The notes below the pieces were generated by a model that searched no databases, had not been told where the DNA came from, and was given only the letters and a program-made list of their open reading frames with translations. From Escherichia coli (GTDB taxonomy: Bacteria; Pseudomonadota; Gammaproteobacteria; Enterobacterales; Enterobacteriaceae), in the NCBI GenBank assembly GCA_005400705.1, contig GCA_005400705.1_4079.1: DNA of 64,000 nucleotides; one strand, 5' to 3'. Each line of letters begins with the position of its first letter. Position 1 is the first letter of the stretch. The translations under genes and the position numbers were made by a program. Shown here piece by piece: positions 12,165-48,439 of the stretch.

Positions 12165-12364
12165 AGACGTTTCATTTTGACAGGCCGCAGGGGGGTCAAA
12201 AAAATTTCCGCTGAAAAACATGCTAAGGTATATGTTTAATATAAAGTTTTATATTGTGTTTTTCAGAGTACAGTTTATGTTTCCTGAAACAAAAAAAAAA
12301 TACCCCGCCACCGAACGTGCTCCTTATATTGGAGTTTACCTTATTAATTATAGTAGAGATTAAG

Positions 12365-12742
12365 ATGGAAATAAAATATAATGAATTTTGTGCAAGGACA
12401 TGGATGTACACTGGTGAGTTAGTTACGCACTCTAACTTATACAAGGGTGATTTAAACTACGCTAGGGACAAGATTTTAAAGTACTGGAATGCTGACTTTT
12501 ATTTGATGGATTTTAGTACTGGGTTTAGGGGTAAAGCAACCGAGATGTTGGACTATACAGTACTTGATGATGCTGCACTGTTTCAGGAGGCATTAGTATT
12601 TGATAAGAAGTACATCTGTACATTAGAAGAGATGATTGAATTACAGCGTAGAATTAAATGTATTCACAGGGAATGTATAGATATCTGGTGCAGTACTGGT
12701 GAAGTTGATTTTTGTAATCATTTCAATCTAGGGGAAGTGTGA
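12365..12742 (+). CDS. family B protein (subfamily B1)
   Basis: ATG 12365 preferred over track start 12254; core DDAALFQEALVFDKKYICTLEE. Confidence 0.65.
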   Translation: MEIKYNEFCARTWMYTGELVTHSNLYKGDLNYARDKILKYWNADFYLMDFSTGFRGKATEMLDYTVLDDAALFQEALVFDKKYICTLEEMIELQRRIKCIHRECIDIWCSTGEVDFCNHFNLGEV

Positions 12743-13098
12743 TGGAATTTGATTTTTTAATATCAGTACATTCTTTTAAGCACAGTTTTCAGTACTTTTG
12801 TAATTTAAACAAAGGTGATTTAATGCACAGTGCGAATGAGTATATTCATTTTACTGATGGTAAATTCTCATTTATTGATTACAGTTCATTAGATTTTCCA
12901 TACACTGATATGCCGGACTATACATTGATGGATGCTGGTGAACTATTTCAAGCTGCATTAGTATTTGACAAGAAGTACATCTGTACATTTGAAGAAGTAA
13001 TTACTATACAAAATGAAATGAAGGTGTATGCATCGTTGAATAAACCTAATGAATGTATTAATCAAGAATACAAATTCAATATAGGAATTCCAAAATGA
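12739..13098 (+). CDS. family B protein (subfamily B1)
   Basis: Core DAGELFQAALVFDKKYICTFEE; ATGA overlap. Confidence 0.7.
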   Translation: MMEFDFLISVHSFKHSFQYFCNLNKGDLMHSANEYIHFTDGKFSFIDYSSLDFPYTDMPDYTLMDAGELFQAALVFDKKYICTFEEVITIQNEMKVYASLNKPNECINQEYKFNIGIPK

Positions 13099-13454
13099 CA
13101 TATGATTATTCTATGTACTATTATAAGTTACCTAAAGGATGGGACTTGTGCTGTAATCTTATTAAGGGAGACTCGGAACATGAGTTGAGTTTATATATGC
13201 ACTACAAAGATTCTTGTTTTAAATTTATTCATGTATTACATGATGGCTATGACTATGAATCTGAGAGTCTTATAGATTATACAGTACTGGACGATGGTGA
13301 ACTATTTCAGGAAGCATTAGTGTTTGATAAGAATAAGTACTCCTGTACATTTGAAGAAATGGTTTCTTTGCAAAATGAAATGAAGAGATTTGAAAAAGAA
13401 AACGTATTTAATCCATCCCCATCAAGAACGAATAATTATTATTTCAATATATGA
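13095..13454 (+). CDS. family B protein (subfamily B1)
   Basis: Core DDGELFQEALVFDKNKYSCTFEE; ATGA overlap. Confidence 0.7.
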   Translation: MTYDYSMYYYKLPKGWDLCCNLIKGDSEHELSLYMHYKDSCFKFIHVLHDGYDYESESLIDYTVLDDGELFQEALVFDKNKYSCTFEEMVSLQNEMKRFEKENVFNPSPSRTNNYYFNI

Positions 13455-44036: not shown

Positions 44037-44300
44037 ATGAATATTAAAGATAGATTACAATTACTATACACTATTGAACAGGCTGCTTTTGAACTTGTTA
44101 ATAAAATCTCCGAAGAACTTCCCAAAGGAACTATAGTTCGTGTAATTGAGAGGGATTATGAATCTGGAGAAATTGAAGAACTAGTACTAACCGTGAATAA
44201 AGTAACATACTATGAATCTGAGTTGGCTATCCAATGTATATCGGAAGATGGTAAAATATACTATTATGACACTGGTGTAGATATAGAGGTAATAAAATGA
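44037..44300 (+). CDS. hypothetical protein
   Basis: ATG 44037 after GGTGGA. Confidence 0.5.
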   Translation: MNIKDRLQLLYTIEQAAFELVNKISEELPKGTIVRVIERDYESGEIEELVLTVNKVTYYESELAIQCISEDGKIYYYDTGVDIEVIK

Positions 44301-45439
44301 CCCTTTTACAAATATATGAAGATTTAATGCACTTATGTAATACAAACGATGCGTTTTTTTATGTGGATCATAAAAGTCCTGCTGGTGGTACGTATCGTGT
44401 ATTCAGTTATCGTCTAGCATCATACACTGATTTCATGCAACCAAATGCGTTGGAAACCCGTGGCTCTATGTGGGAAATTGATGAAGAAGGTGACATGATA
44501 CGTTGTGCAGCACGTACAATGAAAAAGTTCTTCAATGCTTACGAGAATCCTGCTACAATGTTCCCTGCTAACACCACATGCGATGACATTGCGGTAGTGA
44601 TGCCTAAGTTGGATGGTTCGATTATCAGTACTTATCGTGATAATGATGGTGAGATTCGTTGTAAATCACATACTGCATTGTATTCTGACCATGCGATTAA
44701 CAGTACTCGACTTATTAACGAGAACCAGAATTTGTACCAGTACATCGACGAAGCGGAACGTTTAGGTTACACAGTTAATATGGAGTATACAAGCCCAGAG
44801 TACCGAATTGTATTACCATATCAGGTAGAACAACTGTTTGTACTGAACGTTCGACATCGTGTGAGTGGTGAGTTGCTATGTGGTAAAGCACTACGTGATA
44901 AGTTTCCATGTCTTGCACAGTACAGTACTAATATGACTGGAAAAGATATTCATCACACTTTTCCGGTACGAAATACCTTCCGTGAAAGCGTGGAGGAAGT
45001 TCATAAAATGCTTGATATTGAGGGTTTTGTGTGCATCCTAAATAATGGGACAATGTGTAAAATAAAGACTGACTGGTACAGTTCATTACATCTTACAAAA
45101 GATAGTATTATTATTGATTCTCATTTATATGAAGCCGTATTAAATGGTTCAAGTGATGATTTAAAACAATTGTTCAGTACTGATGAATATGCTATGCAAA
45201 AGATATTAAGAATGGAACAATTGGTATTTTCGTGCTATAATGCATTACAAGATGAAGTAGAAAGCTTCGTCAAGGAACACAAGCACTTGGAGCGAAAGGA
45301 ATTCGCAATGAAGGTTCAGGAGTGTTTAACTAATGAACTGAATCGTCAGGGCTTGGCCTTTGCAATGTATAACAATAAGAAAGTTGATTACAAAGAGACT
45401 CTTATAAAATACATGAAAATTGTACTAAAGGATTTTTAG
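44297..45439 (+). CDS. rnlA: RNA ligase 1 (T4 RnlA-like)
   Basis: Remembered similarity to T4 Rnl1: N-terminal TYRVFSYRLASYTDF, RGSMWE and lysine-adenylation motif PKLDGSIIS; length 380 aa. Confidence 0.8.
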   Translation: MTLLQIYEDLMHLCNTNDAFFYVDHKSPAGGTYRVFSYRLASYTDFMQPNALETRGSMWEIDEEGDMIRCAARTMKKFFNAYENPATMFPANTTCDDIAVVMPKLDGSIISTYRDNDGEIRCKSHTALYSDHAINSTRLINENQNLYQYIDEAERLGYTVNMEYTSPEYRIVLPYQVEQLFVLNVRHRVSGELLCGKALRDKFPCLAQYSTNMTGKDIHHTFPVRNTFRESVEEVHKMLDIEGFVCILNNGTMCKIKTDWYSSLHLTKDSIIIDSHLYEAVLNGSSDDLKQLFSTDEYAMQKILRMEQLVFSCYNALQDEVESFVKEHKHLERKEFAMKVQECLTNELNRQGLAFAMYNNKKVDYKETLIKYMKIVLKDF

Positions 45440-45469
45440 TACTATCTAGCCTAAGCACAAGGAGAAGTG

Positions 45470-45724
45470 ATGGCTAAACCTAAGTATAAAAATGACGGTT
45501 CCCTTTCTCCGACTGAGTTCAGGAAAATACAAGAAGAAATCGATGAATTACAGCACAAACGCTCAATGAAAGGTGTGAAGATAAGTAAGAAACGAATCGA
45601 GAATACCTTCGGATGTAGTAGTACTGAATACAAGAAGAAAAGGAAACCAAAAGGTGTTAAGCCGAGAATACATGATGTAACTCGCTATACATCGAAACGT
45701 GAAAATAAATTTGATCCACTATAA
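45470..45724 (+). CDS. small basic protein
   Basis: ATG 45470 five nt after AAGGAG; lysine/arginine-rich. Confidence 0.55.
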   Translation: MAKPKYKNDGSLSPTEFRKIQEEIDELQHKRSMKGVKISKKRIENTFGCSSTEYKKKRKPKGVKPRIHDVTRYTSKRENKFDPL

Positions 45725-45733
45725 GGAGTTCAT

Positions 45734-45964
45734 ATGAAAGTTGAAGTTCAGCATAGTATTGTTCAGGATATGTCAGTAGTTAAATTTCTTTCTCTGAAAG
45801 ATTACTTCAGATGTATCAAGTTCCTAGAAGAATCTCAATTACAGTGGACCCCATTAAAGTACAGTTCATCCAATGATACAGCTAGTATTCGTTGTGATGA
45901 ATCTGTACTTGTGAAAATCTCCAAACGATTTGGAGTAGGAAAAGTTAATGAGCACAGTAAGTGA
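45734..45964 (+). CDS. hypothetical small protein
   Basis: 76-aa ORF after AAGGAG. Confidence 0.55.
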   Translation: MKVEVQHSIVQDMSVVKFLSLKDYFRCIKFLEESQLQWTPLKYSSSNDTASIRCDESVLVKISKRFGVGKVNEHSK

Positions 45965-46202
45965 CCTAAAATACTACAACAAAACTGCGGATACGTTTAT
46001 TACTCATTTATATGAAGAATTTAGTCGTATCCGTAAGGAATATACAGGTAAATGTATTTTATATAGTTCTTATCATAGTGGTGGAATTGAAAGTGCTTAC
46101 ATTACTAAAGTGAAGTTTTCTGATGACTATCAATTACTCTTTGAATTAGATGATTGTTTCGTTATTGAAGCTTGTTTGATAGTGGATGTTCTAGATAATT
46201 GA
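45948..46202 (+). CDS. family D-like small protein
   Basis: Motif KEYTGKCILYSSY. Confidence 0.5.
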   Translation: MSTVSDLKYYNKTADTFITHLYEEFSRIRKEYTGKCILYSSYHSGGIESAYITKVKFSDDYQLLFELDDCFVIEACLIVDVLDN

Positions 46203-46208
46203 GGACAT

Positions 46209-46523
46209 ATGAATAAAGAACTTGCATTTGAGAGGATCGAAAAGTTAAAGTACATTGAAAAGGAACTAATAAAATCTGTCGAATCAATGGTCGAAGATTA
46301 CGTTTTCGATTTTAAGAAAACATTGATTGGATGTAAAGTTAAATGCTGGGATCATACAATCAGAGAATGGTTCAGTACTATAATTCTTGATGTTAAAGTA
46401 TCGCGTACTGCTATTGGTAATTTAGTAAATGGTGAATGCTTTGTATACACTGAATACAATAACGGAACAAGAAACCTTTCAAGAGGATGGCACAAACTCG
46501 AAGATGTAGAATTCATTGAGTAA
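46209..46523 (+). CDS. family D small protein
   Basis: Motif KTLIGCKVKCWDH; RBS GAGGA. Confidence 0.55.
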   Translation: MNKELAFERIEKLKYIEKELIKSVESMVEDYVFDFKKTLIGCKVKCWDHTIREWFSTIILDVKVSRTAIGNLVNGECFVYTEYNNGTRNLSRGWHKLEDVEFIE

Positions 46524-46535
46524 CAAGGAGTAATA

Positions 46536-47468
46536 ATGCCAACTATTACACTAACAGTTGGATTACCTGGGTGTGGTAAAACCACATGGGCAGTTCAAGA
46601 AATTAAAAATGCCAAATCCAAGACTATCAACATCAACCGTGATGATATTCGTGAATCTATGGCTGGGTCACATGATGCTTACAAATTCAACGATGCTAAT
46701 GAGCAGTACGTAACTAATTTACAGTTCAGTGCAGCAAATTCAGCAGCAGAGAATGGTTGGAACATCATCATATCCGATACAAACCTTAAACAACATTTCC
46801 GTAATCTCTGGAAAGTATGGGCTAAAGATAATGGTTATGATTACAAAGAAAAGAACTTCTATGATGATTTTGTACCTAATGAAGACCGTGGTGCAGATGT
46901 TCATGAATTCTTTAAGATTAAAGAGTTCGTAAAACTTTGTAAGAAATATAACCTTCAGCGTGAGCGTTCAGTACAAGATAATATCATTGACACAATGGCA
47001 GATACGTACTATTATAGTAAGGCATTGCACATTGGTTACTATGGTAATTCACGAGAAGCTGCTGTTATCGTTGATATTGACGGTACTCTTGCTCATAAAT
47101 GGGGTCGTAATCCTTACGATGAAAGTACTGTTCTTCAGGATACACCTGATGAAGAAGTTATTTTGTCTATTATCGCTGAAGCAGTTTTTCATAAACGCAA
47201 GATTATCGTCATGAGTGGGCGTACTGAAGGGTGTCGTACTGACACCGAACAGTGGCTTAAGAATTGGGGTGTTCCTTACGATGCATTGTTTATGCGAGGC
47301 ATCGATGATAAACGTCCTGATGATGTTGTTAAATTCGACCTGTACATGAAAAATGTGGTTAATCAATACGATGTTAAAAAGGTATATGATGACCGCGAAG
47401 CCGTGACGTTCATGTGGCGTAAGCTACTTGGTTTGAAGGTATTTCAAGTAGATTTTGGACGTTTTTGA
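46536..47468 (+). CDS. pseT: polynucleotide 5'-kinase / 3'-phosphatase (T4 Pnk-like)
   Basis: N-terminal P-loop LTVGLPGCGKTTWA and HAD phosphatase motif VIVDIDGTLA; 310 aa. Confidence 0.8.
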   Translation: MPTITLTVGLPGCGKTTWAVQEIKNAKSKTININRDDIRESMAGSHDAYKFNDANEQYVTNLQFSAANSAAENGWNIIISDTNLKQHFRNLWKVWAKDNGYDYKEKNFYDDFVPNEDRGADVHEFFKIKEFVKLCKKYNLQRERSVQDNIIDTMADTYYYSKALHIGYYGNSREAAVIVDIDGTLAHKWGRNPYDESTVLQDTPDEEVILSIIAEAVFHKRKIIVMSGRTEGCRTDTEQWLKNWGVPYDALFMRGIDDKRPDDVVKFDLYMKNVVNQYDVKKVYDDREAVTFMWRKLLGLKVFQVDFGRF

Positions 47469-47508
47469 TAAAATAAATAGTGCATATATGACAAAAAGGA
47501 CTTTCTAT

Positions 47509-48195
47509 ATGCACTATTATATTATATATAAAATAACCAATTTAATTAATAATAAAATTTATATTGGTGCTCATATGACTGATGACATAAATGATGAATA
47601 TATGGGTTCAGGTGTTCTGATAAAGAAATCCATTAAGAAATATGGAATTGAAAAATTCAATAAAGAAATACTTTATATTTTTGATAATAAAGAAGAAATG
47701 TATAACAAAGAAAGAGAAATTGTTAATGAACAATTTATACAAAGAAGCGACACATATAACATCAAACGTGGTGGAGAAGGTGGCTACGGCGTAATTGATA
47801 AAGAAAATTGGAAAAAACAAATATCAACGGCACAAAAGAAGCGATATTCTTCAGGTGTTGTGGCTTGGAATAAAGGTAAATCTGTATCAGAAGAAACACG
47901 TATTCAAATGAGTCAGAGGATGAAAGGTCGTTTCCCTGGAGATAAAAATCCTATGCATGGTAAACCCTGTACATATAAAATGACAGATGAAGAAAAAACA
48001 TCATGGTCCAACAATATAAAGAAATCAAACACTGGTAAAAAGAGAACTGATGTTCAAAAACAAAAATATTCTTCGGTCGCGTCAAAACGAATTTGGTTAG
48101 TTCATAAAAGTGGTAAAGTTACTAATACACAAAATGAAAATGACCCACGTTTGAATGATCCAGATTGGCAACGTGGTCAAAAGTGGAGAGAATGA
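47509..48195 (+). CDS. GIY-YIG homing endonuclease
   Basis: YIIYKITNLINNKIYIGAH ... NIKRGGEGG motifs and NUMOD-like WNKGKS repeats; very AT-rich; start could be ATG 47488. Confidence 0.7.
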   Translation: MHYYIIYKITNLINNKIYIGAHMTDDINDEYMGSGVLIKKSIKKYGIEKFNKEILYIFDNKEEMYNKEREIVNEQFIQRSDTYNIKRGGEGGYGVIDKENWKKQISTAQKKRYSSGVVAWNKGKSVSEETRIQMSQRMKGRFPGDKNPMHGKPCTYKMTDEEKTSWSNNIKKSNTGKKRTDVQKQKYSSVASKRIWLVHKSGKVTNTQNENDPRLNDPDWQRGQKWRE

Positions 48196-48220
48196 ATATT
48201 TTTATGGATTATAATTTTTG

Positions 48221-48246
48221 AGGGATCATAATTTGGTCCCTTTTTC
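48221..48246 (+). terminator. rho-independent terminator
   Basis: Hairpin GGGATCA-taatt-TGGTCCC followed by TTTTT. Confidence 0.6.
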
Positions 48247-48439
48247 TTTTAAGGTACATTATAGTGAATGTAACAACACAGATGTTATTGCGAAAAGACT
48301 ACTTAGAAAATATAGAAAGATTCTATAGAATGTCTTTGTATGAAAATAAACATAAAAATTATAATTTTGATAAACTACTAAATTCCAGTACTGATGATTA
48401 TCTATTTTCATCAATGTTTTATGTGAGAGGTTTATTATA

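Follow-up and report, generated by a model that had tools for sequence, protein, structure and literature searches.

A Seg-type endonuclease gene inserted after pnk in an Asteriusvirus genome, with a flanking haplotype patch compatible with co-conversion

Introduction

A free-standing homing endonuclease gene (seg) is located directly after the RNA-repair gene pnk in a 64-kb stretch of DNA (the window; contig GCA_005400705.1_4079.1 of an Escherichia coli assembly). Nucleotide matches to related records assign the window to Asteriusvirus, that is, to an E. coli jumbo phage of the 121Q/PBECO4/G17 type. The window encodes a T4-type pair of RNA ligase 1 (Rnl1) and polynucleotide kinase/phosphatase (Pnkp), and the explanation favoured here, with a probability of about 0.8, is that a mobile cassette carrying the Seg endonuclease was recently acquired after pnk and is spread by homing and co-conversion. 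The RNA-repair pair and Seg-type endonucleases are textbook T4 biology and the locus itself is ordinary; it is a clean example of a known phenomenon and no new kind of system, neat rather than surprising to a specialist. The new elements are the mapped co-conversion tract, the strict linkage of this seg lineage to pnk across phage families, and the late-promoter and hairpin control carried by the cassette.

Insertion of seg after pnk

The features of the insertion site are as follows (positions in the window; basis of the assignment in brackets).

46536..47468, + strand: pnk, T4-type polynucleotide 5'-kinase/3'-phosphatase, 310 amino acids (aa) (Pfam, phrog_505, alignment with 1LTQ)
47469..48221, + strand: 753-nucleotide (nt) insert containing a promoter-like box, a hairpin, the seg open reading frame (ORF) and a 3' spacer (alignment with eight seg-less genomes)
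47509..48195, + strand: seg, putative free-standing GIY-YIG (Seg-like) homing endonuclease, 228 aa (phrog_314, family profile, predicted fold)
48220..48252, + strand: intrinsic terminator, GAGGGATCA-TAATT-TGGTCCCTT followed by a T-run (terminator scan)
47238..48364, unstranded: seg-linked haplotype patch, minimum extent, with outer limits at 47178 and 48430 (allele pattern of G17 and TH47)

The region matches 36 Asteriusvirus records from E. coli and Salmonella jumbo phages (121Q, PBECO4, G17 and others) at 84-97% identity (best 97.4%), the window itself not being one of these records. The genes rnlA and pnk are present in all 36 records, and seg is absent from 35, phage TH47 being the sole other carrier. 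The first-pass annotation had considered that the GIY-YIG ORF might be uniformly present in relatives; it occurs in 1 of the 36. A nucleotide search with the seg region among 50,697 phage records returned a single full-length match, TH47, with 99.9% identity over 821 nt, and the other Asteriusvirus records match the flanks only.

In the alignments with the seg-less genomes, the insertion point is exact: it separates the pnk stop codon from the hairpin serving as the pnk terminator of those genomes. The GC content of the insert is 29.6%, versus 38.3% for pnk. The earlier observation that the endonuclease gene ends at a terminator is correct, a hairpin with a T-run being found at 48220-48252, and the same terminator directly follows pnk in seg-less phages; in G17 it lies 7 nt past the pnk stop codon and is annotated as a terminator. 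To judge from these alignments, the terminator served pnk until the insertion. The two ends of the insert are marked by a direct repeat of 7 nt, TTTTTGA (47462-47468 and 48215-48221), the left copy including the pnk stop codon; it could be due to chance in AT-rich DNA or be a trace of the first arrival of the cassette.

The sequences around the insert show a mosaic structure. By blastn, the window is 87.9% identical to TH47 upstream, 97.9% over pnk and seg, and 78% downstream. The alleles of the window were scored at the 73 positions where G17 and TH47 differ and are, in order, 19 of G17, one of TH47, nine of G17, 39 of TH47 and five of G17 (runs test, z = -7.65). The window thus has the G17 allele up to 47177 (with one exception), the TH47 allele at 39 of 39 sites between 47238 and 48364, and the G17 allele again from 48431. 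Within this patch of 1.1-1.25 kb, the window and TH47 differ at a single base, 47929, which changes R141 to C, and 23 sites in it are private to the seg-carrying genomes. The transferred unit consists of the insert, 230-290 nt of the 3' end of pnk and 145-210 nt of downstream sequence, with borders mapped to about 60 nt.

The patch changes six C-terminal residues of Pnkp relative to G17 (D288E, Q289A, V291T, A306D, E307F and N309R). In the resulting C-terminus, EAVT and DFGRF replace DQVV and AEGNF, and the DD motif is untouched. Repair of a double-strand break from an endonuclease-carrying donor leads to co-converted flanks (PMC2988022). The patch is compatible with such a co-conversion tract, as repair from a seg-carrying donor would leave, and is not proof of it. 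Taken together, the allele pattern and the alignments indicate that seg was acquired recently in the phage of the window. The first-pass annotation had suggested a selfish endonuclease inserted beside pnk, and this suggestion is borne out by the seg-less relatives, the exact stop-to-terminator junction and the TH47-like patch in a G17-like backbone. An origin of the pnk 3' end of seg carriers from the A4/Turkey5 lineage was considered and rejected, the identity there being no higher (70-81%).

The seg gene product

The mechanically called ORF of seg begins with TTG at 47455, and the start conserved among homologues is the ATG at 47509. This ATG lies 40 nt past the pnk stop codon, in agreement with the distance of about 40 nt given earlier. 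The predicted protein contains an N-terminal catalytic domain (approximately residues 1-90), NUMOD3-like helical modules and a conserved C-terminal domain. Its PHROG match is phrog_314 ("homing endonuclease"; 5.5e-48). The reading frame is uninterrupted, and none of the invariant residues of the family is missing. Among 34-35 Seg homologues, the invariant residues are IIY (Y7), IYIG (Y18 and G20), E68 and Y83-N84. Thirty of 34 relatives match SegE_GIY-YIG of Pfam (best 5e-8) and 25 of 34 match GIY-YIG (best 1e-6) at E<=0.01.

Comparison with solved structures points to I-TevI, the endonuclease of the T4 td intron. With the Seg sequence alone, nothing above noise was obtained from the PDB, and a family profile built from the 34 homologues gave the I-TevI catalytic domain as the sole match (E = 0.04). 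Residues Y6, Y17, G19 and N90 of I-TevI are matched in the alignment, and E68 of Seg stands beside I-TevI E75. The AlphaFold2 (AF2) model of Seg has a mean predicted local distance difference test score (pLDDT) of 87; its residues 1 to about 95 match I-TevI structures 1MK0 and 1LN0 with probability 1.00, a template-modelling score, TM(target), of 0.65 and a root-mean-square deviation of 3.1 Å, and all other matches have probabilities of 0.07 or less. Beyond the N-terminal domain, the model consists of helices, for which the NUMOD3 matches are weak, and closes with a small C-terminal domain that is rich in beta structure and predicted well. The DNA-binding domain of I-TevI (PF20987) was not detected in the window Seg by Pfam scan. 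The family motifs, the profile match and the predicted fold agree with the original GIY-YIG call. I-TevI is the only solved structure matched by both profile and predicted fold; it is intron-encoded, whereas seg of the window is free-standing.

The closest described systems are the Seg endonucleases of T-even phages (SegA-G and SegH). They are likewise free-standing, intergenic beside a conserved gene and sporadic in distribution, show co-conversion of flanks, and combine an N-terminal GIY-YIG domain with a variable, DNA-binding C-terminus; these properties are described in PMC2988022. DNA encoding the catalytic domain of the window Seg is about 72% identical to segH of T6 and relatives, and that segH sits at another location. 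The lineage of the window differs from the T-even Segs in its C-terminal domain, in its site (after pnk), and in occurring also outside Straboviridae, in Asteriusvirus and related uncultured jumbo phages.

Linkage of the seg lineage to pnk

All full-length homologues examined (40-96% identity) are located directly downstream of a gene with an HAD_PNKP domain. Seven metagenome homologues (96, 64, 57, 57, 52, 49 and 46% identity) were examined, and each directly follows a co-oriented HAD_PNKP gene. Five belong to rnlA ... pnk loci (contig sizes up to 324 kb); the other two come after stand-alone phosphatase genes of 148-150 aa, and one of these two loci has a separate AAA_33 kinase gene beyond seg. 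Full-length homologues from isolated phages (40-48% identity) occur in Karamvirus, Gualtarvirus, Mosigvirus, Ishigurovirus and Marfavirus, in each case immediately after pseT. A fused query made of the last 138 aa of Pnkp and Seg found 15 records with both parts adjacent in that order, and these are exactly the 15 records with a Seg identity of at least 40%. Homologues at 36-40% identity are located elsewhere, namely, in a tRNA cluster, near a dNMP kinase gene and after nrdD. No close relatives of Seg were found by a scan of IMG/VR.

Eighty metagenome loci share the N-terminal domain of Seg. Two of them have the C-terminal 100 residues of the clade, and they alone are preceded by an HAD_PNKP gene, at a distance of 36-72 nt. 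The association of the C-terminal domain with an upstream HAD_PNKP gene has a Fisher p of 4.8e-4 over the 65 loci whose upstream sequence is long enough. By this comparison, it is the C-terminal part, not the catalytic domain, that goes with the site. The proximity of the endonuclease to pnk is therefore no coincidence; in different phage families, its lineage keeps to the 3' end of that gene.

Several phage groups give information on the movement of the lineage. In T4-like phages, too, seg occurs sporadically: the pnk region of Mosigvirus PNJ-9 is matched by 691 records, and three seg carriers are known (PNJ-9, WFbE185 and P896). PNJ-9 and WFbE185 are the only full-coverage records among the 691, and P896 is known from the protein homologue and fused-query searches. 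The insertion in Mosigvirus is precise, between the pnk stop codon and the start of the next gene. Between phage groups, Seg proteins have a higher mutual identity than the HAD domains next to them (for example, 64% vs 45% for Karamvirus and Gualtarvirus), which fits movement between lineages without proving it.

Other observations were made at these loci. The Pnkp C-terminus reads QVAS/FGDF in seg-carrying Mosigvirus (L019 and L033) and QVNHGDF in seg-less relatives (L034 and L035), and over the final ~300 nt of pnk the identity falls sharply, some pairs having only 55-56%, which points to possible flank replacement in Mosigvirus as well. In Klebsiella phage EI (Marfavirus; L036, 2015-2609), the pnk-linked seg is broken into ORFs of 120 and 51 aa; it has the look of a copy in decay, such as a late stage of a homing cycle would be expected to produce. 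On the metagenome contigs L028 (3516-5113) and L029, a stand-alone HAD_PNKP gene of 148 aa precedes the seg homologue and a distinct AAA_33 kinase gene of 131 aa comes after it, so that the phosphatase-then-kinase gene order is the reverse of the domain order of Pnkp. A phosphatase-only gene precedes seg in L026 and L027. A 183-kb metagenome contig (L030, 1312-6327) contains a larger RNA-repair cluster composed of rnlA, a 205-aa ORF, pnk, seg, two small ORFs and an Rnl2-type ligase gene (PF09414 and T4_Rnl2_C).

Late-promoter-like box and hairpin before seg

Two putative control elements are located at the left end of the insert.

47473..47479, + strand: ATAAATA box, late-promoter-like (rarity in the window, Rak2-like consensus, leaders of homologues)
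47472..47523, + strand: RNA hairpin pairing the seg start codon (folding versus shuffles, leaders of homologues)

The heptamer ATAAATA is present in three copies in the window (12157 and 47473 on the + strand, 61548 on the - strand) versus 50 +/- 7.6 expected. Because the heptamer is so rare, its presence before seg is unlikely to be accidental. In Rak2-like phages, late promoters are predicted to have the consensus ATAAATA, which is similar to the T4 sequence TATAAATA (PMC5259590). The T4 sequence occurs once in the window versus about 15 copies expected. These counts suggest strong selection against the late-promoter core in the window's block of small, early-type genes. A TAAATA-type box is found at the same place before homologous seg genes in nine of the 13 leaders listed.

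The core of the hairpin is a perfect 12-bp stem (47477-47488 with 47506-47517) that starts within the ATAAATA box. The Shine-Dalgarno sequence AAGGA (47496-47500) lies in the loop, and the AUG (47509-47511) is paired with 47483-47485. Its minimum free energy is -15.7 kcal/mol (z = -4.65), and none of 200 shuffled sequences folds as well. Equivalent hairpins of homologues have z values of -4.4 to -8.0 in the jumbo-phage copies, -6.0 in Aeromonas ZPAH1 and -4.7 in L030. The consensus contains 14 pairs, of which the innermost is changed on both sides in three sequences (compensatory). The covariation is modest: in the jumbo-phage copies, most of the stem does not vary, and change on both sides is confined to the innermost pair; two other pairs changed on both sides come solely from the divergent L038 leader.

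In five of eight other leaders (Karamvirus, Gualtarvirus, Ishigurovirus, L030 and, weakly, L026), a 5' arm of different sequence is complementary to the Shine-Dalgarno region, that of L030 being AAATCTCC. These five leaders contain a TAAATA-type box in or before the hairpin. Hairpins of the Mosigvirus and L028 leaders are no better than those of shuffled sequence. A combination of late promoter and hairpin is described for I-TevI, I-TevII, I-TevIII, segB and Aeh1 mobE, in which read-through early and middle transcripts are silent and late transcripts starting inside the 5' arm are translated (PMC2988022). The expression logic of I-TevI is the same as that proposed here, with the late promoter placed so that only late transcripts escape the translation-blocking hairpin. 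By analogy with I-TevI and segB, promoter use and translational occlusion are also probable at seg.

RNA-repair genes

The remaining members of the RNA-repair locus are located upstream of pnk.

44297..45439, + strand: rnlA, T4-type RNA ligase 1, 380 aa (Pfam, phrog_562, alignment with T4 Rnl1)
45467/45470-45724, 45734-45964, 45948-46202 and 46209-46523, + strand: four small ORFs between rnlA and pnk (ORF list)

The product of rnlA matches RNA_lig_T4_1 (58.8 bits; cut-off 28.3) and T4_Rnl1_C (62.4 bits; cut-off 27) of Pfam and phrog_562 at 3e-109, and aligns along its length with T4 Rnl1 (2C5U; E = 1.5e-56, 196 bits). The motifs KxDG, RG, KFF, KS, E, EG and KxK are conserved. An alignable adenylation lysine had been set as the test of the ligase assignment, and K104 in KLDG of the window protein aligns with K99 in KEDG of T4 Rnl1. 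The residues are identical at the positions of T4 R54, K75/F77, K119, E159, E227/G228 and K240/K242, which are the residues essential in T4 Rnl1 according to mutagenesis. By homology, the ligase probably has ligation activity and would repair tRNA anticodon loops.

The pnk product matches AAA_33 (50.6 bits) and HAD_PNKP (138.2 bits) of Pfam and phrog_505 at 2e-92, and aligns along its length with T4 Pnkp (1LTQ; E = 2e-35, 126 bits). It consists of an N-terminal P-loop 5'-kinase fused to a C-terminal HAD 3'-phosphatase. The alignment contains the P-loop GLPGCGKT, NRDDIR (the RDD.R kinase motif), the DIDGT nucleophile motif, GRxPYD, SGR, DDVVK and DDR. Kinase and phosphatase activities and a role against anticodon nucleases are probable on this basis. 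The assignment as RNA ligase 1 and Pnk made in the first-pass annotation thus holds, both proteins aligning with solved T4 structures with intact catalytic motifs. The ligase, four small ORFs, pnk, GIY-YIG ORF and terminator that it listed were all recovered at the same positions, with every ORF on the + strand.

T4 rnlA (gene 63) and pseT, which together repair tRNA and counter the anticodon nuclease PrrC, have the same domain architecture and catalytic motifs as the pair of the window. The gene order of T4 is rnlA-alc-pseT.3-pseT.2-pseT.1-pseT, and the window likewise has a ligase gene, four small genes and a kinase-phosphatase gene on one strand. The four small ORFs between ligase and kinase had been reported as a trait of this locus; they are present, but the arrangement is not special to the phage of the window, as T4 has the same order. 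The intervening genes of T4 are alc, two spanin-like genes and pseT.1, whereas those of the window are functionally unassigned. The host genome also differs from T4 in being that of a 350-kb Rak2-like jumbo phage. The RefSeq note on T4 rnlA reads [quoted passage not shown]. Transfer of this role from T4 is reasonable, and Rnl1 and Pnkp of the window would then reseal tRNAs cut by host anticodon nucleases as a counter-defence.

Three of the four small ORFs match PHROGs of unknown function (phrog_15306, phrog_14730 and phrog_31355) and one is without a match; none matches a Pfam or PHROG family of known function, and the annotations of G17 and 121Q list them as hypothetical proteins. The last two small ORFs (window 45948-46523) are swapped in PBECO4 and EC.P1 for a single unrelated ORF of 103 aa (L004, 3947-4258; L007, 3946-4257), and the equivalent stretch of the unannotated TH47 record is unalignable.

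No tRNA gene and no second GIY-YIG gene were found in the 64-kb window, and no other large insertion relative to the relatives was found in the 25 kb upstream. Three tandem ORFs (162, 119 and 119 aa) at 12254-13454 share the motif ...DYT(V/L)(L/M)D(D/A)xELFQ(E/A)ALVFDK... and look like a small paralogous family.

Proposed mechanism and candidate target

Seg would cut the seg-less allele in a mixed infection, either inside the final ~290 nt of pnk or close beside them. Resection of the break and repair from the seg-carrying genome would follow, and the repair would copy seg together with flanking pnk and downstream sequence (co-conversion), so that the linked pnk allele spreads along with it. 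The C-terminal DNA-binding part of Seg may set the specificity for pnk, and the N-terminal catalytic domain would be common to Segs at other sites. Read-through early and middle transcripts of rnlA-pnk are expected to fold the hairpin, leaving seg untranslated; late transcripts starting just past the ATAAATA box would be free of the 5' arm and would be translated, as in I-TevI and segB. By analogy with T4, the part of Rnl1 and Pnkp would be to reseal tRNAs after cleavage by anticodon nucleases of the host.

All seg hosts have a single sequence in common, namely, the final part of the phosphatase coding region (DDR..VV.MWR ... QV..G.F). It is the sole sequence shared by full Pnkp (Rak2-like and T4-like) and stand-alone phosphatases, and the lineage may be specialised on the 3' end of the HAD phosphatase gene. 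The break would lie to the right of 47178 because of the left border of the tract.

Two candidate sites were considered and rejected. The changes at 47400-47408 (DQVV to EAVT) were examined as an immunity mutation; the CAAGTNGT codons are kept in other seg carriers, including the 96%-identical metagenome copy, Karamvirus, Gualtarvirus and others. The hairpin loop (GACAAAAAGGAC...) resembles the seg-less intergenic sequence (TACAAAAGGGATC...) at 14 of 22 positions by eye, which raised the idea of an operator like that of I-TevI or of a target remnant; the resemblance is not conserved in homologues.

Alternative explanations

Several points weigh against a homing cassette. The TH47 record is unannotated and marked "UNVERIFIED". 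A second small patch in pnk (46955-47084), with nine differences from G17, is 98-100% identical to PBECO4 and 121Q and involves no endonuclease, so ordinary recombination also makes mosaics here. The window and TH47 have similar left tract borders, which makes two independent homing events unprovable. No substitution shared by every seg-carrying genome points to an obvious immunity site in pnk. The late-promoter role of ATAAATA in Rak2-like phages is a published prediction with no mapped start site (PMC5259590). The window Seg falls below the Pfam cut-offs for GIY-YIG (16.7 vs 22.6 bits), SegE_GIY-YIG (16.7 vs 25) and NUMOD3 (18.2 vs 20.4). The region of I-TevI Arg27 is an unaligned insertion with no aligned counterpart in Seg, the clade instead having invariant H22, Y31 and G33-S34-G35. 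Cleavage, its target site, preferential inheritance and RNA repair are things that we infer.

Part of these points would also suit an ordinary homologous-recombination mosaic in which seg is a passenger and its product is inactive or uninvolved in its own transfer. Mosaics at a scale of 100 nt occur here without an endonuclease, both in the patch just described and in a variable stretch at 46690-46820; the small ORFs at 45948-46523 were exchanged in PBECO4 and EC.P1 and cannot be aligned in TH47; and cleavage by Seg is something we infer. The patch, however, has the insert at its centre and extends only a short way to either side of it, and the seg ORF is intact with every family-invariant residue. 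Seg is also more conserved between phage groups than the neighbouring pnk domain, and passive hitch-hiking does not explain why the same lineage occurs, sporadically, at the same site in at least 12 divergent phage lineages. A passenger gene is therefore considered unlikely. Simple vertical descent, with seg ancestral at the site, immobile and independently lost in almost all lineages, would account for an association with pnk old enough to span Straboviridae and Rak2-like jumbo phages, for Seg identities that roughly track the host groups (58-96% among jumbo phages, 62-76% among T4-like phages) and for the decaying copy in Klebsiella phage EI. It is hardly credible given that a single base in 1.1 kb separates the window from TH47, against an identity of 78-88% in the flanks, and that seg is missing from 35 of 36 Asteriusvirus records and from nearly all of the 691 Mosigvirus-region matches. 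Because most relatives are without seg, dozens of precise deletions restoring the same stop-to-terminator junction would be needed.

The strict adjacency to HAD_PNKP genes across very different genomes, including those with stand-alone phosphatase genes, might instead reflect function, the GIY-YIG protein being a working partner of Pnkp co-opted for nucleic-acid end processing or counter-defence. The gene seg is on the pnk strand with no terminator between the two, which makes co-transcription possible. Against such a partnership, seg is absent from almost all phages that carry pnk, one copy (EI) is broken, the flanks show co-conversion, and Seg contains DNA-binding modules of the NUMOD3 type. 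Its own late-type promoter box and translation-blocking hairpin are typical of selfish endonucleases, and a functional partnership is accordingly regarded as very improbable.

Significance

With the cassette after pnk, a jumbo phage offers a natural case of co-conversion linked to an endonuclease and "caught in the act". The whole Seg lineage follows one protein domain, the Pnkp phosphatase, across distantly related phages. A broader view, held only tentatively and rated somewhat below even odds, is that these genes form a previously undescribed Seg lineage specialised on the 3' coding end of Pnkp-type HAD phosphatases, which moves between phage genera and possibly between two phage families, overwriting the C-terminal part of a counter-defence gene and driving the linked allele through populations. 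A pnk-linked Seg is mentioned neither in a 2010 review of mobile elements of the T4 family nor elsewhere in the literature searched, the coverage of which was incomplete, and this silence is weak evidence of novelty.

A lineage that follows pnk narrows the search for its target to roughly 100-290 nt, and its specificity is directly testable. In phage engineering, including that of phages considered for therapy, the gene could matter, since seg would bias the inheritance of markers in mixed infections. A selfish element that repeatedly rewrites the end of a counter-defence gene could also matter wherever pnk alleles are compared.

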